DNA of 64,000 nt from Promethearchaeota archaeon (GCA_030603385.1 JAUVXW010000009.1:62958-126957), one strand, 5' to 3'. Counted from the first letter of the stretch, positions 9,197 through 42,859 are shown. A program made the numbers and translations. Notes: a model not told the origin generated them from the letters alone.

Positions 9197-9349
9197 TCTA
9201 CTTCATTAAGGATTAATTTTGAAAATGAAAATTTTATATAATAGCGAATATACTCAAACAATTTTATATAAAAATTTATGAAAGTTTCCAAAATTATAAA
9301 TATAATAATTAATTTATAATAATTATAAATTTAAAAAAAATTTAAATTT

Positions 9350-10822
9350 TTGGAGGTATTAAGAAACATGTTAGAATTGAGTGAAGAAAAAGTATACGAT
9401 ATTCGAAAGGTTTATGGAAAAGACAAGAAATCAGGAGAAGACTTTTATAACAAATGGCTTAGAGAATATCCAATCCTAAAAAACGAAGATGTACAAAAGT
9501 GGATTAGAAATAAGATAAATCAATTTACTGATGAGGGAAAAAATCCGAAAGGTTTCAAAATAACGACATATTTAAGACCATTATATCAATATTGCCTGTT
9601 TAATAAAGTAGAAAACCCTACAGATTTATTAGATGAAGTAAACATGACTGTAGAAATAAACGGAAAAAAGGGAGATATAGAAAACGGAAATCTAAGATTA
9701 AAGACATATATTAATTTTCTTTTGGATGTAATAAAAGACAAAAATAACAAACAGAAATTACAGAAATTAAAAGATCTAAAATTTAGGGTAATGAAAAATA
9801 CTGGAAAAGTAAAGATACCAAACGAAGTTTCAGTTAGAAATATGATACAAGGCAGAATTAGGAGTTTTTACTCATCCCGTGGATTTCAATTATCCGTAAA
9901 AATAAAAACAAAGGATTCTGGTAAAAATGTAAACGAAATAGATGTAGACAAAGAAATGATAAAACGAATTAAAAACAACATCAATAATATTACATATAAT
10001 TTGGTCTGTAAATTTCAAACTCAGACAGGATTAAGAATAAATGATATATTGAAAGAGTTAACAAATGGTAAATATGTAATTGAAAATTATAAAGATGGAG
10101 ATTTCGAACGTTACTTTATTAGAAATTTTGAAACACAGAAAGAAAAAGTGGTAATTAATTTTATGCCATTTACAAACGAATTAGCAGATATGTTGAGTCT
10201 TACATATCCTGAAATAAAAGATGATTTAACCAAATTGGATTTATCAAATTTATTTATAACAAGAAACAATAAACGTATAAGGGAAGTTGATTACTTAGAC
10301 AGATTAAAATTGGCAACTAAAAGGGCTGGAATAAAAGGAAATATGAAGACACATTTGCTTAGAAAATATTATATAACACAGATAGAAGATGTTAAGGAAA
10401 TAAGTAGTAAATTTAGAGACCATTTAGAAGGACATACCACAGATTATTCAGATAAAACATATAATAAGAATATTAGACGTATCAAATGGTTTTTTGATAA
10501 TTGGAAATTAATAGAAGAGAGTATTTGTGTAAACGGTGTTATATATGGTAAAACAGATAAGAAAGTTATAAAATTGGATAAAAGATACAAAGATATAATG
10601 GAACAATTAGTTGAAACCAATAAAACAAATACAGAATTACAAAATAAATTAAATAGTATGGAACATAAGGTAGAAGGATTTGACCAGTTATTTAGAATAT
10701 TACTCGAAAAGCAAAGATATTCAGAGGAAATCGATGAAAAACATGGAATTGAATCTACAAAGGTATACAAAGTTATGAAAAAGGTATTTGAAGAACATTT
10801 TGAAAAGTTAAGTAAAAAATAA
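9350..10822 (+). CDS. Tyrosine recombinase/integrase with C-terminal coiled coil
   Basis: Catalytic set R (QTGLRIND), K (ETQKE), HxxR (THLLRKYY), H (LEGH), Y (DKTYN). Confidence 0.92.
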   Translation: MEVLRNMLELSEEKVYDIRKVYGKDKKSGEDFYNKWLREYPILKNEDVQKWIRNKINQFTDEGKNPKGFKITTYLRPLYQYCLFNKVENPTDLLDEVNMTVEINGKKGDIENGNLRLKTYINFLLDVIKDKNNKQKLQKLKDLKFRVMKNTGKVKIPNEVSVRNMIQGRIRSFYSSRGFQLSVKIKTKDSGKNVNEIDVDKEMIKRIKNNINNITYNLVCKFQTQTGLRINDILKELTNGKYVIENYKDGDFERYFIRNFETQKEKVVINFMPFTNELADMLSLTYPEIKDDLTKLDLSNLFITRNNKRIREVDYLDRLKLATKRAGIKGNMKTHLLRKYYITQIEDVKEISSKFRDHLEGHTTDYSDKTYNKNIRRIKWFFDNWKLIEESICVNGVIYGKTDKKVIKLDKRYKDIMEQLVETNKTNTELQNKLNSMEHKVEGFDQLFRILLEKQRYSEEIDEKHGIESTKVYKVMKKVFEEHFEKLSKK

Positions 10823-10865
10823 TTTTTTTTTTTCGTGAATTATTATTTTAAAATTAGTATTCTTA

Positions 10866-12083
10866 TTATTTCCCTCTCTTTTCTATTAATAAATCTAAAA
10901 TATCTTCTATGGTCATATCTCCAAAAAATTCATCAATCTTTTTATCCTTCAACGAATTTAATTTTTTCTTTGTATATTCAAGCTTTTCGTTTATAAGTTT
11001 ACTCTCTCTTTTAATATACTTTTTGGAATTTTCCAAATTTTTTATCGCATATTCTGATTCTTCCATCTCCTTCATATAAAAGAATATATAATCATTAAGA
11101 CGTTCTAATAATAATAGTATTGTTTTTATTAAATATGGTTTATCTTGTGTAATTAATTTCTCTAAAACATCTGTGTCTTTTTTCTCCCTACCTATAAATT
11201 TTCCACGTGTATATTCATCATATTGATAACCTAAAATAGCATCAACAACAATTTTATCCAAATTATTATTAATATTTCCAATATGAAAATCATCTTTTTT
11301 TCTATCCTTAGAAATTATTTCACTTATATATTTTAAAATATTAGTATTTTTATATTTTATCGAATGTTCTATCATATCATCTAAATAATGATTTCTCATA
11401 TAATTATAAACTTCATTGGTTGGTTCTGTTCTTAAAATAGAATTGATCATATCTCGATTTACATTAATTTTATTATCTGGATATTTTATATTATAATCAT
11501 TAAAATAATCTATTAAATAATTTACAATAGGTTCAATATAATGTGGATGTCTATTAGGATCCTTTCTATAATACAAAGTTTTATACATAAATGCCTTTTC
11601 GGAAACTGGTAAATTTAATCCTCTTTTTTCATCCTCTTCTTTTTTCTCCCTTTTTTCATCCTCTCTCTTTTTTTTCTCTTCTTTTTTTATTTCTAATTTT
11701 ACTTTTCTTTTTATACGTTCCTCATACCATTCCTTTTCTACAATAGGAAGTCCAATCACTTCATTTACATTATTAATATCAATCATATTCATAGTTTTTA
11801 TTAATTCCTCTTTTTCTATATCATTCATATGTTCTATTTCAGATTCTCTTTTACGGAAATCAAAAGGCATTTCATGAGTCTCAAAATAAAGCAATTGTAC
11901 AAACTTCCATTTATAATCACTTTTATGACTTTTAAGTCTACCTAAGATATGCTTTGTTTCTCCAGTGTAATATCTCCAATCATCATTTCTACTCAAACAA
12001 TTTAATATATAAATAAAATGATATTTATGTTTATTAATTCCACATAAAAATTCCATTTCTTTTTTAAACTCATCAATCTTCAT
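10866..12083 (-). CDS. GIY-YIG nuclease domain protein with long C-terminal extension
   Basis: FIYILNC...YYTGET...GRLKSH...RESEI at the N-terminus. Confidence 0.78.
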   Translation of the reverse strand: MKIDEFKKEMEFLCGINKHKYHFIYILNCLSRNDDWRYYTGETKHILGRLKSHKSDYKWKFVQLLYFETHEMPFDFRKRESEIEHMNDIEKEELIKTMNMIDINNVNEVIGLPIVEKEWYEERIKRKVKLEIKKEEKKKREDEKREKKEEDEKRGLNLPVSEKAFMYKTLYYRKDPNRHPHYIEPIVNYLIDYFNDYNIKYPDNKINVNRDMINSILRTEPTNEVYNYMRNHYLDDMIEHSIKYKNTNILKYISEIISKDRKKDDFHIGNINNNLDKIVVDAILGYQYDEYTRGKFIGREKKDTDVLEKLITQDKPYLIKTILLLLERLNDYIFFYMKEMEESEYAIKNLENSKKYIKRESKLINEKLEYTKKKLNSLKDKKIDEFFGDMTIEDILDLLIEKRGK

Positions 12084-12388
12084 TTAAATAACCTTAATAA
12101 GCCATTTTTCTAAATAAATTATAATGTTTATAAAATTTAATAATTTTGAATAAACACCATATCTAACAACCAATAATCATTAGAAAAAGAATAATTAATT
12201 TTTTTTCTCTAAATATCAAATTAAATAATCTAAAAATCAATACAATCATCATTTATAACTGAAAATTTGAATGAATCATCACACATCAATATTTTATATT
12301 GGAAATTTATAAATATTATAAAAACCAATGTTTTGACTCTTAAATTTGATAAACGCCAAAACATTTTAAATAAAAGAAAAAAAATTAA

Positions 12389-13099
12389 TTATTGTTCTTT
12401 TCCGCACATTGGACAGAACATTTTTGTTTCGTCTAATATTTCAGTTCCACATTCTGGACAATATAACTTTTGTATTTTATAAATTTCTTTTTGCTTTTTT
12501 ATGGTTTCTCTTATATTCCTTTTTTTATGTCTCTTTTTGAATATATTTTTCCCTGTAATAATAATAACTACAGACATATATCCAAGACATCCTAAAAATA
12601 TATAAATAGGTATAAAAGTAAGTAGAACCAAAAAATCCAACGAAGTCTCTTTATATGTAGAATAATATTCAAAAGATATATAGGAAGAAATTACATCAAA
12701 ATTTATAACCAAAATAGTCCACGTATCGTAAAAAGGGAAATCCATATTATACCATGCTTCTCCTCCAGATTCATCTGTAAAATGCCAATAATTAGTATAT
12801 GAATTATAATCATAAACATCAAAGTCAAGCCCGTGTTGCCCAGAAGACAATAAAACAACATAAAAATCGAATGGTGGATCACAATAAAATTTAAAAAGAA
12901 AATGATCTCCATCTTGTCCTTTAACATAAAAAAGCCATCCTGTATCTCTCTGCATTTCACGTTCAGTACGTCCTTCCCATGTTTCTACTTTTGGATAAAA
13001 AACAACTATTATCGCTGAAATAACTACTCCTATTAATAAAAAGGAAACCAAAAACAAAACAATTATATATTTCTTCATTTTTTTTATCACCTCCTTCAT
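12389..13099 (-). CDS. Membrane protein with extracellular beta-rich domain and C-terminal zinc ribbon; likely start ~13078
   Basis: Two TM segments, DTWTILVINFD motif, CPECG...CPMCG. Confidence 0.75.
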   Translation of the reverse strand: MKEVIKKMKKYIIVLFLVSFLLIGVVISAIIVVFYPKVETWEGRTEREMQRDTGWLFYVKGQDGDHFLFKFYCDPPFDFYVVLLSSGQHGLDFDVYDYNSYTNYWHFTDESGGEAWYNMDFPFYDTWTILVINFDVISSYISFEYYSTYKETSLDFLVLLTFIPIYIFLGCLGYMSVVIIITGKNIFKKRHKKRNIRETIKKQKEIYKIQKLYCPECGTEILDETKMFCPMCGKEQ

Positions 13100-13122
13100 T
13101 TGTTTAATTTGAAATAAATTTA
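13087..13122 (-). repeat. Gene-junction repeat copy A
   Basis: TAAATTTATTTCAAATTAAACAAATGAAGGAGGTGA; the first TAA is the stop of ORF 13120-13596. Confidence 0.8.
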
Positions 13123-13596
13123 TCCAATTATCATTTCTCCTGTATATCTAAAATTAATTCCTTCAACAATCAATTCCTCCATATCTGGATATTCACTCTT
13201 CATTCCCATAATTACCTGTTTCCATGTTATTAATTTACATGTCATACATTCTGTCTCACCATATATATCAACAAAATCTTCAAGATAATGCTTATTTTTG
13301 GGTTGAATCCATTTTTTTAATCCTGTTAGTATCCAGATATGATCTTCTTTAAACAGACATTCATCATATATTGGCTGAATTCTATGTCTATCTGCAATTA
13401 TTTGCTTTATATTGTGCTTCTTATTATGAGTTTTACACCATACATACCTCTCATCTTTCGTCCTTAGCTTGTTAATTTCAATCATCTTCTCAGAATGTTG
13501 TTCGTCTATTTCGTTAAATTTTTTTCTTAAAATTCTGCTCTGTTCCCTTAGTTTCATTATTTCTTCATATAATTCCATTATTTCTTCTTCACTCAT
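13120..13596 (-). CDS. Hypothetical protein (N-terminal coiled coil, scattered Cys/His)
   Basis: 158-aa ORF with GGAGGTG SD. Confidence 0.7.
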   Translation of the reverse strand: MSEEEIMELYEEIMKLREQSRILRKKFNEIDEQHSEKMIEINKLRTKDERYVWCKTHNKKHNIKQIIADRHRIQPIYDECLFKEDHIWILTGLKKWIQPKNKHYLEDFVDIYGETECMTCKLITWKQVIMGMKSEYPDMEELIVEGINFRYTGEMIIG

Positions 13597-13610
13597 TATT
13601 TAACACCTCC

Positions 13611-13925
13611 TTATTTTTTTAATGAATAATTTAACATATTAAATACAGCCATATTTCTCCTCCTTATATTCATCAACCCGCCACTCTCATCTGTTTGGAA
13701 TCTAAATTTTCTACCATCTTTTAGATTAATTAATGGTCTTTTAGCTGTTTTCGGAAATTTCTCAGAAATAGTAACAGAATTAATTTCTTCAAATTTAATC
13801 TCAGTTATATTTCCTCTATGAAACAAAAATACGATCTTATCGTCCTCAATCTTTAAAGTTCCCCAGTGTCGTCTTTTTGGTAATCGTGTTTCTCCTTCCA
13901 ACATTAAAAATCCCTGATAACTCAT
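13611..13925 (-). CDS. PH-like/GRAM-like domain protein
   Basis: WGTLKIEDDKIVF...EIKFEEINSV...LINLKDGRKFRF strand pattern. Confidence 0.6.
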   Translation of the reverse strand: MSYQGFLMLEGETRLPKRRHWGTLKIEDDKIVFLFHRGNITEIKFEEINSVTISEKFPKTAKRPLINLKDGRKFRFQTDESGGLMNIRRRNMAVFNMLNYSLKK

Positions 13926-13929
13926 CTTT

Positions 13930-13950
13930 TCACCTCCTCATTTGTTATTT
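13930..13950 (-). repeat. Gene-junction repeat copy B (partial)
   Basis: AAATAACAAATGAGGAGGTGA; contains the stop of ORF 13945-14151. Confidence 0.75.
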
Positions 13951-14151
13951 TTTTAATGATTTTAAATCTTTTATCTTTTCATAAATATCTTTGTCAAATT
14001 GTTTTAAAAATTCTGAACTACATTTTTCTTTTAAATATTTCACTATTTCCCTGATAATCGTTAATGAATCACGATTCATTTGTATACTTGATTTAACGTT
14101 CTCCTGTATAGAATCAATTCGTTTTAATATATCATCTAATTTTTCACTCAT
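13945..14151 (-). CDS. Small hypothetical protein
   Basis: 68 aa, SD present, MSEK start. Confidence 0.65.
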   Translation of the reverse strand: MSEKLDDILKRIDSIQENVKSSIQMNRDSLTIIREIVKYLKEKCSSEFLKQFDKDIYEKIKDLKSLKK

Positions 14152-14158
14152 CTTATTA

Positions 14159-14191
14159 TCACCTCATCATTTGTTATTTGGAATAAATTTA
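14159..14191 (-). repeat. Gene-junction repeat copy C
   Basis: TAAATTTATTCCAAATAACAAATGATGAGGTGA. Confidence 0.85.
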
Positions 14192-14193
14192 TA

Positions 14194-14397
14194 TCATGAT
14201 AATGATTTTTGATCTAATAAAATTCGAGTTAAATGTAACCCAAGACCTGGATATGCCCCTCCCCATATTCCAGCATATTCTCCAATTATAGCAATAGTAA
14301 GGAAGGTTATGACAATAATAATAAATATAATTGTATATTCCAATAACTTAATTCTTTTTTCCAAATATTTTATTCTATTATCAAAATCTTCTGTCAT
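14194..14397 (-). CDS. Small single-TM protein
   Basis: One hydrophobic helix; ATGA overlap with upstream ORF. Confidence 0.65.
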   Translation of the reverse strand: MTEDFDNRIKYLEKRIKLLEYTIIFIIIVITFLTIAIIGEYAGIWGGAYPGLGLHLTRILLDQKSLS

Positions 14398-14753
14398 GTT
14401 AGAACCTCCTGTTTTAATTTTTCCATATCTTTTATTGCTTCATCTCTATATTCTATTACAATATCTTTTAATTCTGGCAATTCAAATAATTCTAATTTTA
14501 AAAATGTCACACGATTTTCATCATATATTTCTAAAAACATAACCAATTCATTTTTTGGATGATAAGTCCATTCAAATCCACCGTATTTAATATTCCTTTT
14601 TTTTAATGCTTCGTTGGTTTTATTTATTAAATTAGAATATTTATCCAATAGTTTACCTTTTAAAAAAATAGGTTCACTCCATTTTTCACCTGTATCTTTT
14701 TCTAATCGTTTTTGTCTTAGTTTTATCATTCTCTTATGATATTTTTCACTCAT
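14394..14753 (-). CDS. Hypothetical protein
   Basis: 119 aa, MSEK start after junction repeat. Confidence 0.7.
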   Translation of the reverse strand: MSEKYHKRMIKLRQKRLEKDTGEKWSEPIFLKGKLLDKYSNLINKTNEALKKRNIKYGGFEWTYHPKNELVMFLEIYDENRVTFLKLELFELPELKDIVIEYRDEAIKDMEKLKQEVLT

Positions 14754-14761
14754 CTCTTTTC

Positions 14762-14793
14762 TACCCCTTCATTTGTGATTTGGAATAAATTTA
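14762..14793 (-). repeat. Gene-junction repeat copy D
   Basis: TAAATTTATTCCAAATCACAAATGAAGGGGTA. Confidence 0.85.
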
Positions 14794-14795
14794 TT

Positions 14796-15527
14796 TTATA
14801 TTAAAGCCTCAATATCATTTTCTTTATTTCCAATATCAATCCAATAATCTATGGCTTGTTTAGCCTTTGGATTTGCTTCAAATCCAATGTATTTTCTATT
14901 TGTTATGATACAATTATAAGCAGTAGTTCCATTTCCCATAAAAGGGTCTAATACGATATCTCCTTCATTGCTTGAATTTTCAATTAAATCACGAACTAAT
15001 CGATTTGGTAGTTTAGTACCAATTTTCGGTACATTAGCAGAAATTCTAGGTCTACTCATAGTAAAAACATCTGGCATATTGAGTCTTAGTCTATTAAACT
15101 TGTATTTGTTTATGTCCCTAACCAAGAAATAGATATGATAATGAGCTGATGAGTATTTCTTTTTTGCTTTTGCTTGTGTAGTGCCACATACCCAAATACA
15201 ATGGTTTAACCTAATCAAATCGAGTCTGTCTAATATTCTTTCTACATTATTTAAATGATTCCAACCTAACACTATATACATTGAGCCAGAATGTTTTAAC
15301 ACTCTTTCTGCTTCTAACATCCATTTAAGTGTAAAATTATAATAATGTTCTGGTTTAACTTCTACATATCCTTCCATTAAATTTTCAGAGTTTCTGACAT
15401 AATTATATGCACCCTTATCAAACCAAATGCCAAACGGAGGATCTGCTATAATTAAATCAATTGAATTGTTACGTATTCTTTTCATGCCTGATATACAGTT
15501 TTCATAATAGATATGATTTAATTCCAT
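14796..15527 (-). CDS. N4/N6 DNA methyltransferase (beta class), solitary
   Basis: IIADPPF precedes VLDPFMGNGTT...IGFE. Confidence 0.92.
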   Translation of the reverse strand: MELNHIYYENCISGMKRIRNNSIDLIIADPPFGIWFDKGAYNYVRNSENLMEGYVEVKPEHYYNFTLKWMLEAERVLKHSGSMYIVLGWNHLNNVERILDRLDLIRLNHCIWVCGTTQAKAKKKYSSAHYHIYFLVRDINKYKFNRLRLNMPDVFTMSRPRISANVPKIGTKLPNRLVRDLIENSSNEGDIVLDPFMGNGTTAYNCIITNRKYIGFEANPKAKQAIDYWIDIGNKENDIEALI

Positions 15528-15531
15528 TTAA

Positions 15532-15561
15532 TCACCTGTTCTGTTTTTTGAAATAAATTTA
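15532..15561 (-). repeat. Gene-junction repeat copy E
   Basis: TAAATTTATTTCAAAAAACAGAACAGGTGA; the first TAA is the stop of ORF 15559-15834. Confidence 0.7.
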
Positions 15562-15834
15562 TTTAATTATTCCTAAACGTATCTTGTTGGCTTTCCGTAA
15601 ATACAATATTGGATAAATCATAAAAACAACAATAGTTAAAACTATACCTATACACAAGCTAATCATTGCTTCGTATTGAAGGACATAATTACCCGTTGTA
15701 TCTACATAATCAAGAGTTTGTATTGCATGTATCATAATATAAAGAATCACACAGCCAACTATTATTGAAATTGTGACCAATGTTCTTAATTTATCATATT
15801 TCATCATTTCCTCTTCACTCATCCTTATTACCAC
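15559..15834 (-). CDS. Small 2-TM membrane protein
   Basis: Two hydrophobic helices. Confidence 0.7.
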   Translation of the reverse strand: MVIRMSEEEMMKYDKLRTLVTISIIVGCVILYIMIHAIQTLDYVDTTGNYVLQYEAMISLCIGIVLTIVVFMIYPILYLRKANKIRLGIIK

Positions 15835-15842
15835 CTCCTATA

Positions 15843-16295
15843 TTATTTAATTTCGATTTTTAAATGTTTACATTCCTTCAACTTCCTTTTTAAGAAATTC
15901 AAGAATTTTTTATATGATTTTAAACCATATCTTTTTTTAATCCAGTTGGTCATTGCTATGAAAATCATATCTACATCTTCCAATGTCTCTTTTAAAATTT
16001 GATTATCTAACTCCTTTTCTGTCACTTCTGTAAATCCTAATTCCTCCAATTTTTCTATTGACGGATCATCTAAAAATTTCTGCTTTAATTTTTCTTGTTT
16101 ATTTTCTTGTTTATTTTCTTGTTCATGTTCCCACATTTTAAAAGCATGAGTTATCTCGTTATTTTTATTTAACGCAGTCCTATTTGTTTCATGATAATAT
16201 TGTTCAAATAATATTTCTTGTCTTTTTGTATATCTTTGTCTACTACCTTGAGAATAATACCATTTCTTTATTCTCCTCCAAAATTCATTACTCAT
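15843..16295 (-). CDS. Hypothetical protein with ETGK-like module
   Basis: YYHETNRTALNKNNEITHAFKMW. Confidence 0.7.
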   Translation of the reverse strand: MSNEFWRRIKKWYYSQGSRQRYTKRQEILFEQYYHETNRTALNKNNEITHAFKMWEHEQENKQENKQEKLKQKFLDDPSIEKLEELGFTEVTEKELDNQILKETLEDVDMIFIAMTNWIKKRYGLKSYKKFLNFLKRKLKECKHLKIEIK

Positions 16296-16301
16296 TTTAT
16301 A

Positions 16302-17033
16302 TCACGTCCTGTTTTGTTTAATTTTCTTTTGATATTGTAACCATTGTTTAAATTGTACAGTGATTTTATTACCCCAAATAACATGTTGACCTGTCTCGGC
16401 TTCAAATCTTTTTATTAATTTTGGATATTTATTTTGAAACTCATTTACACTCATTTTTATTCCTTTTTGTTTCTTTAAATTTTGCGGATTTAAAAGAACA
16501 TGAAACATAAAATTCAATTTATTTTTTTCCCCGTCCTTTTCATCTTCTTTATCATATTCATAAGTTTCATAAACTCCATATATCCTTCCGTACAATTTAC
16601 ATAAGGAAATAAATTTATCAAAGTTCTGTCTAATATGAATAATTTTTTCGAGATTATTAGTGGCATAATCAATAATTTGAATGTAATTCTTAAACTCTTT
16701 ATGTAGCTTTAATTTTAATAAAATTTCAATGAACTTTGCTTTATATTTAAAAGTGAATTTATTATATTTGTCACGTTTACTCTCAATACATTCAGCAAAA
16801 TTATACCATAAATTATTATCAAGATATTTTATAAAACCTCCACCAAGTTTTAATGCACCTCTCATCGAAATAAGCACATATTTACCATCCTCTGTATCTG
16901 GTGTTTCTGGTAAAGGTATATTGCTTTTAATGAATTCTTCAGCAGTAAGCTCTATATAATCTTTCTCATTCCCCTTTTCAAACATTTTTCTTACCATTTC
17001 TTTTAATCTCCTTCTTTTTATTAGGAATTCCAT
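16302..17033 (-). CDS. Hypothetical protein with C-terminal ETGK-like module (possible internal start 16454)
   Basis: MSVNEFQNKYPKLIKRFEAETGQHVIWGNKITVQFKQW. Confidence 0.7.
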   Translation of the reverse strand: MEFLIKRRRLKEMVRKMFEKGNEKDYIELTAEEFIKSNIPLPETPDTEDGKYVLISMRGALKLGGGFIKYLDNNLWYNFAECIESKRDKYNKFTFKYKAKFIEILLKLKLHKEFKNYIQIIDYATNNLEKIIHIRQNFDKFISLCKLYGRIYGVYETYEYDKEDEKDGEKNKLNFMFHVLLNPQNLKKQKGIKMSVNEFQNKYPKLIKRFEAETGQHVIWGNKITVQFKQWLQYQKKIKQNRT

Positions 17034-17493
17034 AACGAAATTTATCTGTATGTTTAATATATGTGAGTCTCTTTTCGATGAGTTTTATGATGGATTTTGT
17101 GCTTTCATCATCAACGTGTTCTCTAATAAATTGATAATACTCATCCCAAGTTTCCAATTTGTGATATTTCATAAATCTCGCAATATCTAATAAAGGTAAA
17201 TCTGTACCTCTTCCTTTTTCAAACAAATAAAAAATACAGAAAATATTGTTTTTCCAACCATAATCAACCTCTTCTATGCCTAAATCTTTAAAAACTCTCT
17301 TTATGAACGGCACCAAATTAATAATTTCTTTCTCATATCTCAGAACTTTATGTGCTGGCTTTTTCACAAATTTCGTTAAAAAATCCAAATAACCTGTATA
17401 TGTATAACAACGTACAACTCCACATCTTAAATATCCTTCATCTACTTTTCCTTTTTCTAAGACATTCTTATATTTATTGCTCAATTTTTTCAA
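16978..17493 (-). CDS. Hypothetical protein
   Basis: 171-aa ORF co-oriented in the operon. Confidence 0.65.
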   Translation of the reverse strand: MKKLSNKYKNVLEKGKVDEGYLRCGVVRCYTYTGYLDFLTKFVKKPAHKVLRYEKEIINLVPFIKRVFKDLGIEEVDYGWKNNIFCIFYLFEKGRGTDLPLLDIARFMKYHKLETWDEYYQFIREHVDDESTKSIIKLIEKRLTYIKHTDKFRYGIPNKKKEIKRNGKKNV

Positions 17494-17505
17494 CTCTTTT
17501 TTTTA

Positions 17506-34588: not shown

Positions 34589-34598
34589 AAATAGAAAA

Positions 34599-34754: not shown

Positions 34755-34772
34755 ATAAAAAAGGTTTAAAAT

Positions 34773-36785
34773 ATGAGTGAAAATGATATATTTAGAGAGA
34801 AAAAACGAATTGGAGCAATAATACTTTCTATATTATTTGTAACAGCGGGGATAACAGCGGTAATATTTGGAATATCATTTATACGAACAGATGATAAATA
34901 TAATGACATATCTGGTGATTACGATGATTTATATGGCGAATATGAGACATTATTAAATGATTTCAATGAACTTGAAGATGACTATTCTATTTTAACAGGA
35001 GAACATGTTGAATTGGAAAACGATTATAATGCTTTAGTAATTGAATTGGCAGATATGACTGCTGAATTGGAGGCTTTAGATAATAATTTAGTTGCTATGA
35101 CCGCCGAAAGAGATGATTTATTAGATCAAGTAGATACTCTCAATGCTGAGATAACTAACCATTTAAACACTATTACTGGATTAAATAACCAAATATATAT
35201 TTTAGAAGCTGAGATAGATGTTCTTGAAGCACAAGCTGTAGTAGATGAACAAGCTATTGCTGATTTAAATGCTCAGATTGTTGATTTAAATGATGAGATA
35301 GCTGGTTATTTGTCTACTATTGCTGGATTACAAGCTACAATTGATGCAAATGTAATTACTATTAGTGGATTAGAAGCTGACTTAGCTAATATGACTACTT
35401 TAAGAGATAACTTACAAATTGATTTAGACGCACTTCAATTACAATACGATACTCTTGTTAGTGATAATATTTTACTTCAAGCAGAATACGATGCCCTTTT
35501 TAGTGCTTATAATACACTTATCGATTCTAATAATGCACTTCAAATTGCTTTTGATAGTCTAACAATTGATTACAATAATTTACAATCTACTTTTGATATG
35601 CTTCAAAGTTCTTATGATGCCCTTCAAATTGAATATGATAATCTCGAAGCTAATTATAATTCTCTTTCAGGTGATTACGATGATCTTTTAGTTAATTTTA
35701 ATACACTCCAAGTAACTTATGCTACCCTACTAAATGATTTCAATGTATTATTAAATGACTATGATATCCTTTCAAATGACCATATTGCTTTACAGAATGC
35801 TTTTGATACACTTCAAAATAATTTTGATTTACTTCAATCGAATTATGACGTTCTATTTAGTGACTATAATACACTGTCAGGATTATACGATGTACTTCAA
35901 AATGAATACGATATTCTTTCGAATACTTTTGATGCTCTAACAATGGCTTATGGATATATTACTGAAACTATAAGACAATCGATACTTCCAGTTCAATTTA
36001 GTATTTTTGCCGAAGCTGTTAGAAGATACTATACGCCAATTTATTTAGGAGGAAAAACAGGAAAAGATTATTGGTTAGGATATGCTGAATTTTGCCGAGA
36101 TATGGTATTACACGATACTTATCAATACAATGCCTTTACTGAAGTATCTGATGCTTTTTCTGATGCTTTAAAATTTGGAAGTGATACAATGTATTTAGCG
36201 TATGAAGCAATGTGGCTTAATTGGCAGTGGATGCCAAATTGGGAAGGTTGGAACTTAATTGGCGATGAACTTGTTGATATTGATACTTTAGTTGATTGGA
36301 CTATTAATGAGATTATTTGGGAATATGATTCTATTGTGACTGTTCTCCAAGAATCTCCAACTGATGATTACATTAAATTTCCTGTAGAAACAGCTTTTAG
36401 AGGAGCAGGAGACTGGGAAGACCAAGCAATATTTATGGCTGCTTACTTAGAATCCTGTGGATTTGAAACAACGATAGTAGTTCTTCATAGTTCAGAACCT
36501 GGTGACACAATGAATGGATTTTATAATTGTGTTCCTTTAGTACATATAGAAGATATTGTTGCTTTTGAGTTAGCATTTCCAGATTGTACTTTATGGAGTT
36601 TAGATGATGAATTTAGAACAGTAATAGATCCGTATTCAGGAGAAACATGGTGTTGGATTGGTACCGACTTAGACGTGTCTTTTGGTTCTGAACCATCTTG
36701 GCTTCAATTCTGGGATGACTATGGTTTTCTTCCAATTTCGGCTGGAACGTTTGCTCTCTGTGATATATATGGTGGTATTAGTTAA
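34773..36785 (+). CDS. Membrane-anchored long coiled-coil protein with degenerate transglutaminase-like head
   Basis: N-terminal TM, ~350 aa of heptads, then DYIKFPVET...GAGDWEDQAI...LES-x-GF. Confidence 0.8.
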   Translation: MSENDIFREKKRIGAIILSILFVTAGITAVIFGISFIRTDDKYNDISGDYDDLYGEYETLLNDFNELEDDYSILTGEHVELENDYNALVIELADMTAELEALDNNLVAMTAERDDLLDQVDTLNAEITNHLNTITGLNNQIYILEAEIDVLEAQAVVDEQAIADLNAQIVDLNDEIAGYLSTIAGLQATIDANVITISGLEADLANMTTLRDNLQIDLDALQLQYDTLVSDNILLQAEYDALFSAYNTLIDSNNALQIAFDSLTIDYNNLQSTFDMLQSSYDALQIEYDNLEANYNSLSGDYDDLLVNFNTLQVTYATLLNDFNVLLNDYDILSNDHIALQNAFDTLQNNFDLLQSNYDVLFSDYNTLSGLYDVLQNEYDILSNTFDALTMAYGYITETIRQSILPVQFSIFAEAVRRYYTPIYLGGKTGKDYWLGYAEFCRDMVLHDTYQYNAFTEVSDAFSDALKFGSDTMYLAYEAMWLNWQWMPNWEGWNLIGDELVDIDTLVDWTINEIIWEYDSIVTVLQESPTDDYIKFPVETAFRGAGDWEDQAIFMAAYLESCGFETTIVVLHSSEPGDTMNGFYNCVPLVHIEDIVAFELAFPDCTLWSLDDEFRTVIDPYSGETWCWIGTDLDVSFGSEPSWLQFWDDYGFLPISAGTFALCDIYGGIS

Positions 36786-36869
36786 AATTTAGGTGTAATT
36801 TATATTATGCCAACCTAATTAATTTTTTTTTTTGTAAAAATAGTCAAATTATTAAAATGTGGAATAAAA

Positions 36870-37133
36870 ATGTCCAAAACTGAAAAATTACAAAGAAATC
36901 CAATGTCATTAAAAGAACATATAATAGAAGTTTATTATGGAATTAAGTTAAAAATAGGTCATGCAAGTTTTAATAAATTTATGACCAAACAATTTAATTG
37001 GATTGTTGTTCAAGACTGCCAAGTTGAAGGCTGTAAAAATAAAGCCATAGGTTATAGTGGAACAAAGGAAGATGGCTCTAAATTCCTTCTTTGCCATAAA
37101 CATTGGTGTGAAATAGTATATAATGATGATTAA
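36870..37133 (+). CDS. Small zinc-finger protein
   Basis: CQVEGC...LCHKH. Confidence 0.6.
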   Translation: MSKTEKLQRNPMSLKEHIIEVYYGIKLKIGHASFNKFMTKQFNWIVVQDCQVEGCKNKAIGYSGTKEDGSKFLLCHKHWCEIVYNDD

Positions 37134-37135
37134 AA

Positions 37136-37327
37136 ATGAGAAAAAAAAGAATACAAAAAAAATTAGACAATTTATCTGAAAAAGAGAAATTGGTTGTTAA
37201 ATATTTTAGAGATTTCGCTAAAGAAAGAAAAGCATATCCAAGTGATATAGCTGAGTATTATGATTGGAAATTTTTAGAAACTCTTCAAATTTGTCAAAAT
37301 TTAGAAACGAAAGGGATATTATATTGA
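37136..37327 (+). CDS. Small winged-HTH protein
   Basis: YPSDIAEYYDW...ICQNLETKGIL. Confidence 0.65.
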   Translation: MRKKRIQKKLDNLSEKEKLVVKYFRDFAKERKAYPSDIAEYYDWKFLETLQICQNLETKGILY

Positions 37328-37343
37328 GGATGGTTAGTTAAAA

Positions 37344-37559
37344 ATGTACATTGAATATCAAGAGAAAATTGTATCAGAAGACGATACAATCCAAAAATTA
37401 GCTGTAATTCTTGGAAAATTAGAAATGAAAGCAATAATTAAACTTGTTGATGAAATAGAATTATCAAAAATTTTAGAGAAATATTTGTCGAAGAAAGAGC
37501 AAGATATTTATCACAGGAGCAAATATAAATTAAAAGAATTACTGATAAAAGAGGTGTAA
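37344..37559 (+). CDS. Hypothetical protein
   Basis: 71 aa. Confidence 0.55.
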   Translation: MYIEYQEKIVSEDDTIQKLAVILGKLEMKAIIKLVDEIELSKILEKYLSKKEQDIYHRSKYKLKELLIKEV

Positions 37560-37682
37560 AATGATAACCTTTTTTACTTAGTTGTCCAATTAATTAATTG
37601 TCAAAAATTTTTGGATTAATTTTATTCATTTCGAATAAGAAAAGCAAACAAAAAATAAATTTGATAAAAGGAGGTTAAAGAA

Positions 37683-38171
37683 ATGAAACGTAAATATATC
37701 TTAGGAATTTTGTTGATTTTATCAATGAGCTTTTTTGTTATACCCACTAAGGCTTACGAGGATACTGAATATTTGATTTTTGGGAGTGAATATTATGGAT
37801 TTGCTGATTACGGGGTAGAAATGAACGAAGGAGATAATTTAACTTGGAGTTTTGAAACGAGGCTGGAAGAGTTCGAAGTTTTAGTTAAAATAGGTGGTGA
37901 AGATGTTTCTGAGGGATTAGAATTCGATTCGGGAATTTGGATCGCACCCAGAACAGATACATTTTGGATTATTTTCATTAACTACGATTATCTATTACGA
38001 AGAGACGGTTATATTGATATTTATTTTGAAGTTAACGTAGAACCCGAACCAGAGCCAGAGCCTGAACCAGAAGACGATGATATTATTGGAATTGATTTAA
38101 TTCCCTTAATAACGATAATCAGCTTAGCAACAATAATTCCATTGATAATAATAACAAGAAAAAAGAAATAA
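37683..38171 (+). CDS. Secreted beta-sandwich (GOLD/emp24-like) protein with EP linker and C-terminal TM anchor
   Basis: Signal peptide, DTFWIIFINYD, (EP)n, TM+RKKK. Confidence 0.7.
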   Translation: MKRKYILGILLILSMSFFVIPTKAYEDTEYLIFGSEYYGFADYGVEMNEGDNLTWSFETRLEEFEVLVKIGGEDVSEGLEFDSGIWIAPRTDTFWIIFINYDYLLRRDGYIDIYFEVNVEPEPEPEPEPEDDDIIGIDLIPLITIISLATIIPLIIITRKKK

Positions 38172-38249
38172 AATCAAAATTAATTAGTTTTTTTATTGTA
38201 AGTGTGCTCTGGTATCCAGAACACCAATTAAAAATGAATAAAAGGTAGA

Positions 38250-38438
38250 ATGTCAGATTATACAAAAAGAAAAACACAAGACATTAGAAAATATAATATA
38301 ATTGGAAAGATATGCCATGAGCTTGACCATTTATATGATTATGCTTTAAAATTAATTCCAAAAAATATGACTCATGATTTAGGCTATAAAAAAGAGCTTT
38401 TGAAAGGAATAATAGAGGAGTTAATATTACAATTATAA
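38250..38438 (+). CDS. Hypothetical protein
   Basis: 62 aa. Confidence 0.5.
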   Translation: MSDYTKRKTQDIRKYNIIGKICHELDHLYDYALKLIPKNMTHDLGYKKELLKGIIEELILQL

Positions 38439-38624
38439 ATAAGGAGGTTAACGATAACGATTGAAGCCTGTTTAAAGTGCAGAATCATTCAAAAGAATAT
38501 TCAAGAAAACGAAATCAAGGAAGAGATTAAAGCTTTTTTAGAAGCACCAGAGAACTTTTATGTTAAATATAATCCGCAAACAGGATTCTACAAATTTGAG
38601 TTGATTATTTAAGCAATTCTAAAA

Positions 38625-38658
38625 TAAATTTATTTTAAATTACAGAATAAGGAGGTGA
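38625..38658 (+). repeat. Gene-junction repeat copy G
   Basis: TAAATTTATTTTAAATTACAGAATAAGGAGGTGA. Confidence 0.65.
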
Positions 38659-39581
38659 AAAATATGGATGAAGCAATTCTAATAATTGTTATTATTTCTA
38701 TTGTAGTGACTGTTACTATAAATTTAATAATATACATGTTTTTAAGAAATAAATTTCAGGCAATAGATATAATTAGAGATTCTGCTATTAAACTTGATAC
38801 AACGGTTTCAACAATTACTACCTTAAGTGGTAATCTTTTTAAGCAAATAGCTGGTTTGACAAAACTTCAATCAGAATTAAAATTAAATTTTCAAAGTTTC
38901 TATGATAAACTTATAATGAAACCATCTGTAAAAGGAAGGGTAGGAGAAGGAATTATCAAATTTATTTTGAGTAGTTTTCCCGAAAAATTATGGAAGGAAC
39001 AATATAAAATTTCTGGCTCTGGTGTAGTAGATTTCGCAATTTTTATGCCACCAGATGATAGAATATTACCAATGGATGCCAAATTTTCATTACCAGAAGA
39101 AGGAATAATAGATAAGGAGTTAGAAGAAGGAGAAATTGTGTTTTTAAATAAGGAACAGAGAAAAAAAGCCAATTCACAAGTAATCAAGAGAATGCGAGAG
39201 GTTACCAAATATATTAATCCATTAGAGGGAACAATGAATTTTGCTTTAATGTTTATCCCAGATTCAGTTTATTTAGCTTTAACAAATGAAACATTGAGTG
39301 AATTACAATCGAATAGAGTTATTCCCGTAAATACAAGTGGTTTAATAAGCACACTATTCTTAATAGAACGTCAATATGTTTCGATAAGAATAAGTAAAGC
39401 TGTGGAAAGATTAGAGGATATAAAATCCACAATGGAATATCAATTTATTAAAATCTCTAATACATTGAAAAAGGCAGAAACACAGGGAGAAAATTCAAAT
39501 AAGAATATTACAAATGCTATTCAGCAGATTAAAAAAGCAGAGAGTAAAATTTTGGTAAGTTTTGGTTTGTTAGAGGAATAA
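38655..39581 (+). CDS. rmuC: RmuC-family PD-(D/E)XK protein
   Basis: N-terminal TM, KGRVGE, EQY, VDFAI, PMDAKFS, KYINPLEGTMNFALMFIP. Confidence 0.85.
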   Translation: MKNMDEAILIIVIISIVVTVTINLIIYMFLRNKFQAIDIIRDSAIKLDTTVSTITTLSGNLFKQIAGLTKLQSELKLNFQSFYDKLIMKPSVKGRVGEGIIKFILSSFPEKLWKEQYKISGSGVVDFAIFMPPDDRILPMDAKFSLPEEGIIDKELEEGEIVFLNKEQRKKANSQVIKRMREVTKYINPLEGTMNFALMFIPDSVYLALTNETLSELQSNRVIPVNTSGLISTLFLIERQYVSIRISKAVERLEDIKSTMEYQFIKISNTLKKAETQGENSNKNITNAIQQIKKAESKILVSFGLLEE

Positions 39582-39606
39582 GAATAATTTAAAGGAGGGA
39601 TAAAAG

Positions 39607-40020
39607 GTGAGTGAACTTGATAATGTAAAGGTAGGAGATATAGTTTCAAATATGTATGTTTTAAAAGGAGAGATGACTCAAATTATGCTGGACAAGATGA
39701 AAATTTTTGAGGAACTTAATCTTGGAAAATATGTTGCTATTCACAATAACAAGGCAACCTGGAGTTTTGTGTTTTGGCTTTGGAATTTTGATGTAAGGAG
39801 ATTTGAATCAATAAAAGAGTATGATGAATTAATAAAAATGAACGATGAGATAATAAAAAGGTATGAGGAATTTACAAAAGAGAAAGTCGAATTAAAAAAA
39901 GATGACATACAAATTACCAAAACAAACTCTAAAAAACCTATTTATAGGGTATCTGATGATTATATGTCTTGGATTCATAATTATGATATAAAAAAAAGAG
40001 TAGATAAATTAAAAAGATAA
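39607..40020 (+). CDS. ETGK-like module protein, paralogue of 30681-31217
   Basis: DNVKVGDIV...MKIFEELNLGKYVAIHNNKATWSFVFW. Confidence 0.7.
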   Translation: MSELDNVKVGDIVSNMYVLKGEMTQIMLDKMKIFEELNLGKYVAIHNNKATWSFVFWLWNFDVRRFESIKEYDELIKMNDEIIKRYEEFTKEKVELKKDDIQITKTNSKKPIYRVSDDYMSWIHNYDIKKRVDKLKR

Positions 40021-40271
40021 TAACAAATATAATTCTAAATTTTTTTCTTTAAAATTGAGTCCAAATAAATTCAATTAAGAATATTTAATTTCATCCTATT
40101 TTTAATCAATTTAATTTATATATTATTCATTTTTGGATTAATGGATTGATGTTTTTAATATAATCAACTAATTTAATGATATTTATCGATTTTTTGAAGT
40201 TTTCTTTATATATTTCAAAATCCCGTCTACTCGTGATATATTAGAATTCGGTTTGAAATAAAATTCTAATC

Positions 40272-40315
40272 TTTCTCAATTGTATCTAATTGAGTTTTCT
40301 CAATTGTATCTAATT
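40272..40315 (+). repeat. Tandem 20-bp direct repeat TTTCTCAATTGTATCTAATT x2
   Basis: Copies at 40272-40291 and 40296-40315. Confidence 0.8.
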
Positions 40316-40471
40316 TTTTTTCTTTTTTGATTTTATAATTTTCTCGATAGAAATTTTTACATAATCTCCTTTATTTAAATCCAATAAAGTTGCTATATCT
40401 TTTCGAACATTGATATACAAAGAATTACCGATCTCTCTAATCTTCTCCACGCTATCAATTTTATTTTCCAT
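40310..40471 (-). CDS. AbrB/MazE/SpoVT-type DNA-binding protein, 53 aa (not in ORF track)
   Basis: KIREIGNSLYINVRKDIATLLDLNKGDYVKISI. Confidence 0.8.
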   Translation of the reverse strand: MENKIDSVEKIREIGNSLYINVRKDIATLLDLNKGDYVKISIEKIIKSKKKKN

Positions 40472-40704
40472 AATCAAGAAAATTAAGTTTATATTTAATG
40501 TAGTAAATTCTAAACATTTTTTAATTTTCTTATTATTTTCTATAACTTTACATATGATATTTTTACATTTCCGTAAACTTAATTAACTTTATATTTAACT
40601 AAGTTTAAGAATTCTTATGTAAACATTTACTTGCTTAATATTAAATACGACCAAATTTATATTATAAATAATAAAATAAATTTAAATAAAAGAGATATGA
40701 AAAA

Positions 40705-41235
40705 ATGAAAAATAAAAAAATGATATTTGGAACAATAATACTTTTATTTGTTATGATAGGAATTTCTAATACACCAAATGTATCTGCTGAAGAAACAATT
40801 GAGATACCGCCATTATCATATTATTATTATCATATGGGTTATTTGGAAAATGGAGATTATATTAGAATTATTAACATTAATCCTGAAAGTGGAGGAATTA
40901 ATGTTTATATTATGAATGATCGACAATTCAGTAGACTTCAAGATACTGGTTATTTTTCTTCTGAAAAGATGTGGGAGGATATTGCACAAATAAGTGGTTG
41001 GTCAATTGAAATTACAGATGATGATTATTATTATGTTGTTCTATATAATGATGATATACTTTTTTCAAGGACTGTAGTAGTTGATATAGAGATTTTATAT
41101 CATTCTCCTGCTAAATCAAATGATAATAACTGGAATTTGTTATTTATTATACTCCCCGCTATTGCTGTTGTAATTGTTGTATTAGTTCTTGTTATAAGAC
41201 ATAAGAGAAAAAGTTCAGGAGAACCAATAATCTAA
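40705..41235 (+). CDS. Secreted beta-sandwich (GOLD/emp24-like) protein with C-terminal TM
   Basis: Signal peptide, INVYIMN, DDYYYVVLYN, TM+RHKRK. Confidence 0.72.
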   Translation: MKNKKMIFGTIILLFVMIGISNTPNVSAEETIEIPPLSYYYYHMGYLENGDYIRIININPESGGINVYIMNDRQFSRLQDTGYFSSEKMWEDIAQISGWSIEITDDDYYYVVLYNDDILFSRTVVVDIEILYHSPAKSNDNNWNLLFIILPAIAVVIVVLVLVIRHKRKSSGEPII

Positions 41236-41265
41236 ATGTGGAGTTAAATAACTAAATTTATTTTT

Positions 41266-41291
41266 TTTATTTTAAAATAACAAATAGGAGG
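41266..41291 (+). repeat. Gene-junction repeat copy H (partial)
   Basis: TTTATTTTAAAATAACAAATAGGAGG. Confidence 0.6.
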
Positions 41292-41297
41292 CGTAAA

Positions 41298-41537
41298 ATG
41301 GCAAAGTTAAGAGGTATACATATATTATATGGAATTGGAAGTGTTATAGTAATAATTTTTGTATGGATAATAATAGCTCCCGCTGAAATAAGTTATTATA
41401 CATCTTATAATTGGGAATTCGATTATTGGTCATTTCAACGAGATTTAACTGATAGACTTTATCCATTTGTAATTATTATTATAACAATTGTAGGATTTTT
41501 TATAATTCCTTATGTATACGATAAGAAATTAAAATAA
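41298..41537 (+). CDS. Small 2-TM membrane protein
   Basis: Two hydrophobic helices. Confidence 0.7.
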   Translation: MAKLRGIHILYGIGSVIVIIFVWIIIAPAEISYYTSYNWEFDYWSFQRDLTDRLYPFVIIIITIVGFFIIPYVYDKKLK

Positions 41538-41556
41538 TTTTTTTTCTTTTGATAAT

Positions 41557-41590
41557 AAAAGGTCTAAAGTTTTTTTCTTTAGACCTTTTT
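41557..41590 (+). terminator. Perfect 13-bp hairpin, terminator-like
   Basis: AAAAGGTCTAAAG-T7-CTTTAGACCTTTT, 20 nt after a stop codon. Confidence 0.6.
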
Positions 41591-41970
41591 GCTCAATTAT
41601 ATGATCCTTAAAAATTTTAGAATTCCATCTACTCGTGATATGTCCATATTATTTTAAAAATAATTTGGCTTTTTCATATCTACTCGTTGGTGTAATTTGG
41701 TTTAATTTCAAATCGAAAAATTTTTGATTTGAATTTTATCATGATTTTGGTCATTGGATTTTTTCTCCAATGATGAACTTCCAAATTCTTTTTGGAAGTT
41801 GAACTTTCATTTGATTTTTGCTTTTAATTTCTTTAAAAGCAATTTTTCATCAATCGTGATTTCAATACCTAAGAGATTCTCAGATGCTAAAAGTTATTTG
41901 TATGATTAGAAAATTTAAATAAATATAGAATATTATTCTAATTAATAGAATAACTCAAAGTGATTATTAG

Positions 41971-42540
41971 ATGGCTTTTATTTGTCCAGAACCAAATTGT
42001 AATAGAGAATTTGATAGTAAAGGATCACTGGCTCGACATAGAAATTGGCATAGACCAGGATATAGGAAAAGTCTTTCAAAAATACATAAAGAAGTATGGA
42101 ATCAACCAGGATTTAGAGAAAGTATGAGTGGAGAAAATAATCCTATATATGGTAAATTTGGAAAAGAAAGTAGTGCTTATAAAGAAGATGCTAAATATAA
42201 AGCAAATCATAGATGGATTAGAATACACTATCCTCCAGAAGAATTTTGTAATAAATGCGAAATATGTGAAATAATAAATCTGAATTTAAATTTAGCTCAA
42301 TTTAGACATGTAAATGTAAGGAATATGGAGGATCCAATGGTAGATTACCTGTACATCTGCCCAAGAACAGAAAAGAATAGTTGCCATCGAATTTATGATA
42401 CCTTATCTGATAAACAGAAAAAAGAATTATTGGAAGGAGCCATTACAAGAGAAGAGAAATTAGAAAGAGTCAGAGAATATGTATTGAAAATAAAAAAATA
42501 TTTATTAAATGGTTATATTTTTAGAAAGTTTAAAATCTAA
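41971..42540 (+). CDS. C2H2 zinc finger + NUMOD3-like + HNH-like endonuclease, paralogue of 26084-26674
   Basis: CPEPNCNREFDSKGSLARHRNWH; SGENNPIYGK; YKANHRWI...CEIC...C...CHRIYD. Confidence 0.72.
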   Translation: MAFICPEPNCNREFDSKGSLARHRNWHRPGYRKSLSKIHKEVWNQPGFRESMSGENNPIYGKFGKESSAYKEDAKYKANHRWIRIHYPPEEFCNKCEICEIINLNLNLAQFRHVNVRNMEDPMVDYLYICPRTEKNSCHRIYDTLSDKQKKELLEGAITREEKLERVREYVLKIKKYLLNGYIFRKFKI

Positions 42541-42859
42541 TAAATTTGAGTATTAAATGAATGTATTATGGAAATTAATTATATATATAAAATCCTTTAA
42601 ATATATCGATTATTCGAAAAAATTGGATTTAGTAAATATGAAATAAGGATTTTATAGAAATTCAAAAATCTTAAAGATTATGATGTATTTAGTTTTTAGA
42701 TCTAAAAAGATTATTATTAATATTTGTGTTCTAAAATCGTGTAAATCATAAATTATAATTAACGTAAAGAGAATTAGAAAATTCTTTAGAAATATTCATA
42801 AATTTATTAAAAAATTTTAAAAAGATTTGATAGACATTGTAATTATAAAATTACTATTT

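Follow-up and report, generated by a model that had tools for sequence, protein, structure and literature searches.

A capsid-less integrated element with a Spo11-like signature gene in an Asgard archaeon, probably of plasmid-like nature

What kind of mobile element carries an integrase, a D5/P4-type helicase and a series of surface proteins, and no gene that can be recognised as part of a capsid, a packaging motor or a conjugation apparatus? The question is raised by a locus in a 64,000-nucleotide stretch of DNA (the window) from a Promethearchaeota archaeon (GCA_030603385.1, JAUVXW010000009.1:62958-126957), taken from contig C31 (62958-126957) of a host genome of 3.89 Mb in 58 contigs with 30.8% guanine-plus-cytosine (GC) content. 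A first-pass annotation had placed an integrated Asgard element at 9260-42820 and had described it either as integrative and plasmid-like or as enveloped or vesicle-borne, with its membrane proteins forming the particle. The former reading was found to fit best. The element is regarded, with a probability of about 0.6, as a cryptic mobile element of integrative, plasmid-like type that resides in a Loki-type Asgard archaeon and represents a previously undescribed family. The Asgard assignment of the host is borne out by a true actin encoded in its genome (441 bits) and by a relative of the element in a Promethearchaeota metagenome-assembled genome (MAG).

The first issue is whether this DNA is an insertion or a part of the chromosome proper. 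The element-specific DNA spans 9272-42845 (33.6 kb), so that the limits given earlier were correct to within about 25 bp at each end, and holds 52 open reading frames (ORFs) at 80% coding density. Its GC content is 26.1%, compared with 32% in the flanks, and ORF calling resolves it into two dense divergent arms, of which the first (10866-28198) lies on the minus strand and the second (28378-42540) on the plus strand. A DNA search against 120 family genomes returned no match for 9272-42840 except for the RmuC gene and a few short stretches, and the helicase gene was not found in 24 other species of the genus.

Comparison of the locus among congeners gives the same picture. The left neighbour gene (5506-6813, Oxidored_q6) is kept in 32 of 40 congeners, and 18 congeners show three other layouts between this gene and the gene at 49382, with element DNA in none of them. 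Four genomes (type A: G003, G055, G008 and G013) have the left gene within 900 bp of a TusA/sulphur-transport operon; eleven (type B: G042, G016, G014, G011, G024, G053, G017, G044, G015, G022 and G054) have it joined to an orthologue of the Lrp-like gene at 42860-43423; and three (type C: G002, G005 and G006) have it joined directly to the gene at 49382. Homology with the type B genomes ends near 6955 and restarts near 42845, where the Lrp-like gene has its stop codon. The element is an insertion and not core genome, as had been claimed for it, being absent at this locus from the 18 congeners and from the other family genomes searched. The Lrp-like gene and the leucine-rich-repeat (LRR) gene next to it are chromosomal and lie outside the element, because the 11 type B congeners place their orthologues beside the left gene with metabolic genes between (ccm, ABC and FAD genes intervene between the Lrp-like and LRR genes in G011). 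The closest relative, G019 (93% DNA identity over the right flank), is broken at the locus and yielded no empty site.

9272-42845, no strand: element core, delimited by DNA unique to this genome, by GC content and by synteny breaks near 6955 and 42845

If the element is an insertion, can it package or transfer itself? About 50 ORFs were scanned with Pfam and 30 with PHROGs, and no match to capsid, portal, terminase, tail, VirB4, coupling-protein or relaxase families was obtained. Neither HK97/portal nor double jelly-roll capsid proteins gave a profile match, and two element proteins were folded. A six-frame scan of 6900-46900 for [AG]xxxxGK[ST] returned a single Walker A motif, GPPSSGKT, which belongs to the helicase. 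This interval thus encodes no P-loop protein beyond the helicase, and so no terminase and no ATPase of the A32/FtsK, pI/B251-like or VirB4/TraG type, which argues against every known DNA-packaging or conjugative machine. The earlier statement that no capsid, portal, packaging ATPase, VirB4 or relaxase can be recognised stands at the level of these profile and motif scans. Viral records were equally silent. Scans of IMG/VR with the helicase and the Spo11-like alignments gave no match (the adhesin alignment was too variable for such a scan), and a phage and virus GenBank collection held no match for the Spo11-like protein or for two small membrane proteins described below. A k-mer scan of the 58 host contigs found no clustered regularly interspaced short palindromic repeat (CRISPR) array of at least four repeats, and no spacer-sized match from the 120 family genomes occurred among the matches listed.

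The genes on which the interpretation is built, together with the main non-coding stretch, are as follows.

9350-10822, plus strand: intact tyrosine recombinase (integrase), with Pfam and PHROG integrase matches
10866-12083, minus strand: 405-residue protein with a weak N-terminal GIY-YIG match (PF01541, 20.9 bits, below the 22.6 cut-off)
14796-15527, minus strand: N6/N4 DNA methyltransferase (PF01555, 1.6e-32; PADLOC MTase_II and orphan methyltransferase models)
17506-18201, minus strand: ParB_N protein with a C-terminal zinc ribbon (PF02195, 7.9e-12)
18673-20679, minus strand: Topo VI-A/Spo11-like ('Topo mini-A'-like) protein of 668 residues (AlphaFold, Foldseek, VIA, invariant residues)
21174-22626, no strand: non-coding stretch of 1.45 kb with 21-22% GC, downstream of the helicase gene, with no ORF of at least 60 residues
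22627-24405, minus strand: D5/P4-type superfamily 3 (SF3) helicase (DUF5906 and D5_N; PHROG primase-helicase families down to 1.3e-41)
26084-26674, plus strand: Cys-rich C2H2-finger protein (39% identity to a paralogue at 41971-42540; weak zinc-finger matches)
31658-32962, plus strand: tandem immunoglobulin-like (Ig-like) protein of 434 residues, adhesin or pilin-like, secreted or membrane-anchored (SpaA domain; AlphaFold pLDDT 76.7)
34773-36785, plus strand: anchored coiled-coil protein of 670 residues with a C-terminal transglutaminase-like domain (transmembrane residues 16-34; coiled-coil Pfam matches)
38655-39581, plus strand: RmuC family protein (PF02646, 3.2e-19)

The integrase falls just below the Pfam cut-off for Phage_integrase (25.7 against 27.1 bits), and its 27 homologues settle the assignment made earlier: PF00589 is present in 27 of 27, and R223, K258, H329-x-x-R332 and Y365 are invariant among the 16 that were aligned. 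The same integrase family is also found on unrelated elements with MCM or defence genes. No tRNA gene was found in the window, in keeping with the lack of a visible tRNA target reported at first, and an Rfam search of 6500-47500 gave no match. The assignments of the helicase, the ParB-like protein, the methyltransferase and RmuC were likewise upheld by the profile matches listed above. No partner restriction enzyme was recognised for the methyltransferase; PADLOC returned only the methyltransferase on the element, plus a negligible DruC match on the coiled coil. The nuclease genes fared less well. The 405-residue protein retains a weak GIY-YIG signal and has no PHROG or PADLOC match, and an HNH nuclease was not confirmed, since the Cys-rich paralogues gave C2H2-finger signals only. 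These paralogues have homologues at 58-61% identity on L017, a related metagenome locus described below. The stretch at 21174-22626 has the lowest GC content of the window and is a candidate replication origin; no clear iterons were seen in the AT-rich gaps.

The 668-residue protein has no sequence match in Pfam, PDB or viral records and eight homologues in a set of 5.8 billion proteins. Its AlphaFold model reaches pLDDT values of 76-85 over residues 80-410, and the top 12 Foldseek matches are all Topo VI-A, Spo11, MksG or JetD proteins, aligned over 313-383 columns. Using VIA, residues 202-417 were matched to Topo VI-A, MksG, Spo11 and JetD with Z of 10.3-13.1 and a root-mean-square deviation of 2.7-3.8 Å over 159-189 residues, compared with Z of about 7 for generic Toprim domains; this comparison covers the Toprim half only, and a 5Y-CAP half is suggested by its motif and by the long Foldseek alignments. 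Y146 (in R142-E-V-F-Y146), E241 (in ICEK) and D295-x-D297 are invariant across the homologues, and the Toprim glutamate and the DxD, with the R-E-V-F-Y motif upstream of them, liken the protein to Topo VI-A, Spo11, MksG and JetD. The predicted fold is that of a Spo11-like protein, which agrees with the first-pass assignment. The neighbouring genes include none for a B subunit, which is also the situation of Topo mini-A. MksG and JetD have an SMC partner, whereas the 668-residue protein has none, and it differs from all of these Toprim proteins by about 250 added C-terminal residues that form a coiled coil and an acidic tail.

Does the element stand alone? The Spo11-like family comprises the eight proteins, 25 metagenome loci and one locus in a Promethearchaeota MAG, which gives the element about 30 relatives in marine-sediment metagenomes and in that MAG, and the Spo11-like gene is the signature gene of this element family. 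L017 (ENA ZHAO22-1 scaffold_444, 38 kb) has ten genes in common with the element, in the same order, among them the Spo11-like gene (67% identity), the adhesin (46%), the coiled-coil protein (49%), the Cys-rich paralogues (about 60%) and a 105-residue gene beside the Spo11-like gene. At its end lie a beta-helix gene and an integrase that differs from the one described here, and these adjoin TrmB and thioredoxin genes. Judged by these genes, L017 is the same kind of element integrated elsewhere, because orthologues of its TrmB and thioredoxin genes are neighbours on host contig C53. Since gene order is kept at a different site and with a different integrase, the module moves as a unit. Other relatives share parts of this set: L069, from Loki's Castle, has the integrase family, the adhesin and the Spo11-like gene; L076 and L077 have the Spo11-like gene with the helicase; L062 and L068 have it with the coiled-coil protein; and L078 has a beta-helix gene beside it. 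Homologues of the integrase and the Spo11-like protein also came from the Loki's Castle metagenome. Precomputed and fresh Pfam scans of the larger ORFs on the relatives' contigs found no capsid, packaging gene or ATPase.

Two observations concern the integrases of these relatives. On L017 (16402-18713) and L047 (1401-3118), which come from different samples, the integrase lies beside a thioredoxin/OST3-like host gene, which suggests a preferred target for this integrase type. The host genome carries a second integrase (C54:60286-60957) that is 31% like those of L017 and L047, with weak methyltransferase and LRR matches nearby; this region is probably another mobile element.

Where does the element end on the left and right? 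The following features surround the core.

6959-7123, no strand: direct repeat of about 165 bp, left copy (two-copy repeat; synteny breakpoint)
7155-9271, no strand: NosD/beta-helix cassette, consisting of a small ORF, a 452-residue NosD-like protein and a 73-residue ORF (NosD 1e-52)
42846-46661, minus strand: host genes, namely the Lrp/AsnC-like regulator, a HEAT plus LRR protein and a 63-residue ORF (orthologues adjoin the left-flank gene in 11 congeners)
46662-46832, no strand: direct repeat of about 165 bp, right copy, which precedes the TusA operon (two-copy repeat; homology gap)

The direct repeat (110 nt at 92% identity, with an identical run of 40 nt) occurs in only these two copies in the whole host genome. 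The left copy begins exactly where synteny with all congeners ends, and the right copy occupies the gap between the end of type B homology at 46651 and the start of type A homology at 46889; the difference from the type A genomes is precisely the 39.9 kb bounded by the repeats. The repeats were accordingly considered as attL and attR attachment (att) sites of a 39.9-kb element, and this was dropped as the leading view on the evidence of the 11 congeners in which the Lrp and LRR genes are chromosomal. It is a matter of speculation that they are attL and attR of a larger unit, which captured the Lrp and LRR genes through aberrant excision and reintegration; alternatively, the repeat could be a reused promoter-like linker. 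It contains the palindrome TGAATAATTATTCA.

The cassette at 7155-9271 is of host type and multi-copy, with paralogues in the host and in most family genomes, and is absent at this locus in congeners. Its end at 9265-9271 recurs in G089 and G074, which is why the element-specific DNA is taken to start at 9272; the cassette is possibly cargo of the element. Its 260-bp leader (7155-7414) is 86-91% identical in G141, G088 and G011, compared with only about 75% for the coding genes, and holds a small ORF of about 44 residues preceded by a CPKC motif. The leader may encode a conserved leader peptide or an RNA, or may serve NosD cassettes as a portable promoter.

These boundaries bear on an alternative in which the region would be an immobile genomic island, either a decaying remnant or a patchwork built at a hotspot through reused promoter-like linkers. 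The interval 6813-49382 is a hypervariable hotspot in the genus, with four contents: nothing; the TusA operon; an Lrp-to-LRR block with ccm and ABC genes; or the element together with both. Four layouts at a recombination hotspot would suit an island of this kind, as would the absence of an identified att site and the resemblance of the 165-bp repeat and the 260-bp NosD leader to reused linkers. The RmuC gene fits as well. Its product is 89% identical (tblastn) and its DNA 88% identical to a chromosomal copy on contig C24, a similarity that points to recent exchange between element and host. However, the larger genes are all intact, coding density is 80% with no frameshifted hallmark gene, the catalytic residues of the integrase are preserved, and gene order is kept with L017 at another chromosomal site and beside another integrase. 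An immobile island is therefore considered unlikely. As a separate observation, a 78-bp stretch upstream of the RmuC gene (37608-37685) also matches C24.

How, then, would a plasmid-like element of this type live? The recombinase would excise it as a circle, and replication by the helicase together with host polymerases would start in the AT-rich gap at 21.2-22.6 kb. Segregation, decatenation or initiation could be the task of the ParB-like and Spo11-like proteins, the methyltransferase may protect element DNA, and the many zinc-finger and winged helix-turn-helix proteins would regulate the two divergent arms. The surface proteins would alter the host surface, through adhesion, cell-cell contact or exclusion, and would not build a virion. 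Because it has no DNA-translocating NTPase, the element can neither package nor conjugate DNA through a known mechanism, and would have to spread vertically or along a borrowed route such as a helper virus, vesicles or cell fusion.

The surface proteins also bear on the choice between the readings. Hydropathy predicts ten membrane or secreted proteins within 9272-42845, including the N-terminal anchor of RmuC, where at least eight had been counted before. The 434-residue Ig-like protein belongs to a small family of about 30 proteins and is kept in L017, L046 and L069. In the PDB it is matched best by two Gram-positive pilins, BcpA and SpaD, and by the TIE protein (E of 1e-10 to 1e-12); among viral proteins it matches baseplate, fibre and spike proteins with generic Ig decorations. 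The 670-residue protein contains about 350 residues of coiled coil and has homologues in L017, L062 and L068. Two weak independent signals, atlas features at 0.92 to Transglut_core clusters and PF01841 at E 0.025, lend weak support to a transglutaminase-like head. To judge by these folds and profiles, the first of these two surface proteins resembles an adhesin of the cell surface and the second a stalk protein with a transglutaminase-like domain. Finally, two small two-helix membrane proteins of 91 and 79 residues are encoded at 15559-15834 and 41298-41537. Neither has a match among PHROG or capsid-family Pfam profiles, neither was found in the relatives of the element, and the 79-residue protein has no homologue among the 5.8 billion proteins. 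A reading of the pair as spindle-virus capsid proteins found no support: BLASTP comparisons with His1 VP21 gave an E of 0.44 and no match, and the 79-residue protein is an orphan.

These proteins form the case for the strongest alternative, in which the element is a provirus of a new enveloped, pleomorphic or spindle-like archaeal virus whose membrane and surface proteins make up the particle without a packaging ATPase. Ten membrane or secreted proteins, a syntenic surface-protein block common to L017, L046 and L069, and beta-helix proteins that recur in the family would all be natural in such a virus; so would the His1-like style of the genes (CxxC mini-proteins, signal-peptide proteins with C-terminal anchors and the 79- and 91-residue two-helix proteins) and the Ig-like domains, which occur in archaeal virus spikes such as HHIV-2 VP17. 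A major capsid protein, however, should be conserved, and the small proteins offered for this role are an orphan and a protein absent from the relatives, neither of which resembles His1 VP21 or matches a PHROG or Pfam family. The best matches of the adhesin are cellular pilins. Pleolipoviruses carry a morphogenesis ATPase (VP8). The element has no such enzyme, unlike the wyrdviruses and the fuselloviruses with their B251 (10.1101/2021.07.29.453957). A new virus of this kind is thus possible, with the odds well against it. Doubtful, and somewhat more so, is the wider proposal that the whole family is a new viral or vesicle-borne kind, with a particle of Ig-like spike, coiled-coil stalk and beta-helix protein that would have neither a known capsid fold nor a packaging NTPase, and with the Spo11-like protein as replication initiator or genome-end processor. 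The idea of an enveloped or vesicle-borne particle put forward in the first-pass annotation keeps a comparable standing, possible and clearly the lesser option.

Several points nevertheless weigh against the plasmid-like reading and limit its probability. About 35 of the 52 ORFs are without an assigned function, among them three of at least 230 residues (10866-12083, 12389-13099 and 16302-17033), and two proteins were folded, so that a capsid of novel fold is conceivable; archaeal virus structural proteins often escape profiles. Ten membrane proteins and a conserved surface module exceed the needs of a plasmid. No att site could be assigned: the 165-bp repeat also encloses host genes, and the ends of the core itself share nothing better than a 10-bp match of A and T only, as chance alone would produce.

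A satellite-like hitchhiker packaged by a helper virus, comparable to P4 or to phage-inducible chromosomal islands, is improbable: an integrase with a P4/D5-type helicase and no structural genes would be typical of one, viruses and proviruses are known from the host lineage (10.64898/2026.02.13.705702) and one Asgard element has been put forward as a putative satellite (10.64898/2026.08.12.739948), but 33.6 kb exceeds the known Asgard viruses (at most 20 kb; 10.1101/2021.07.29.453957) and would be too long for their capsids, nothing resembling a capsid-remodelling gene, a small terminase or a cos/pac site was recognised, and no helper was identified in the host genome.

Some further observations were made on the sequence of the element and its surroundings. 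A module of about 30 residues, ETGK...F-x-x-W, stands at the N- or C-terminus of at least six element proteins between 15843 and 31217 (the ParB-like and Spo11-like proteins and those at 16302-17033, 26084-26674, 27698-28198 and 30681-31217) and also in L017 homologues; a common role in docking or in DNA binding may be its function. On the minus strand of 13087-18243, a motif of about 30-60 bp (…TTTGAAATAAATTTAT…) lies just upstream of at least five unrelated genes and, from its position, looks like an element-specific promoter or ribosome-binding cassette. The first gene of the helicase operon (25341-25565, 74 residues) has a 63%-identical copy on its own contig (C31:54989-55210), which lies 7.7 kb before the start of the window, and another, at 67% identity, on the metagenome contig L020; the copy on C31 may be a solitary regulator that a sister element left behind. 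The TusA/sulphur-transporter operon at 46979-49333 has a paralogous copy at C10:109945-113145 (50-82% identity), beside another Lrp-like regulator.

The wider interest lies in a family of some 30 elements that have a stand-alone Spo11/Topo VI-A-like gene at their centre and are variably equipped with an SF3 helicase, an integrase and surface proteins. It provides an intact, chromosomally anchored example for asking how capsid-less elements move, and a natural setting for studying the function of B-subunit-free Spo11-like enzymes. Capsid-less unclassified Asgard elements have already been reported and no new mechanism is established here, so the surprise to a specialist would be moderate.

Compared with known systems, the element shares its combination of integrase and D5/P4-type helicase, and its lack of a capsid, with P4-type satellites and with archaeal plasmids of the pT26-2/TKV type. 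The pT26-2-like elements also have conserved membrane proteins, but they carry additional ATPases, which the element lacks. With wyrdviruses and His1-type spindle-shaped viruses, which infect Asgard or other archaeal hosts, it has in common an adhesin and other anchored surface proteins, small membrane proteins of two helices and many zinc-finger mini-proteins, and WyrdV4 has a Topo mini-A that recalls its Spo11-like gene. In contrast to these viruses, the element has no conserved His1-like capsid protein and no morphogenesis ATPase, its genome is twice as large, and it has an SF3 helicase where they have a protein-primed polymerase or a rolling-circle protein.

Among Asgard elements, 'Guacar' (MGE-9917) of Atabeyarchaeia is a circular, unclassified element of 26.7 kb that encodes 14 or more transmembrane proteins. 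Integrated elements of the same lineage, with sites proven by population reads, have genes for tyrosine integrases, methyltransferases and ParB-like proteins (Valentin-Alvarado et al. 2024, PMC11529989). Likened by gene content, these likewise fall into neither the virus nor the plasmid class; they come from a different Asgard class and from wetland soil. The Opia viruses of the same study have variable Cys-rich HNH-like proteins, much like the C2H2/Cys-rich paralogues found here (PMC11529989). Intergenic integration is known for an Asgard provirus (10.64898/2026.02.13.705702).

Other points of comparison are offered by the 'enigmatic' CRISPR-targeted Asgard elements (7H_42-like, 10H_0 and 8H_18), which their authors left undecided between plasmid and new virus (Medvedeva et al., 10.1101/2021.07.29.453957). 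These elements and the present one share an Asgard host, the lack of a capsid, a Topo mini-A-like homologue and many zinc-finger proteins, which are not orthologous, and the 7H_42-like elements also have an SF3 primase-helicase. The enigmatic elements encode several nucleases (10.1101/2021.07.29.453957), and they carry PCNA, TFB, MazG or Rad51-like genes, which were not found in this element. Compared by description, they are free contigs of 9-85 kb, some of them circular, whereas this element lies in the chromosome and encodes an integrase; and its Spo11-like protein, by the same kind of comparison, is set apart from their Topo mini-A by its long coiled-coil tail.

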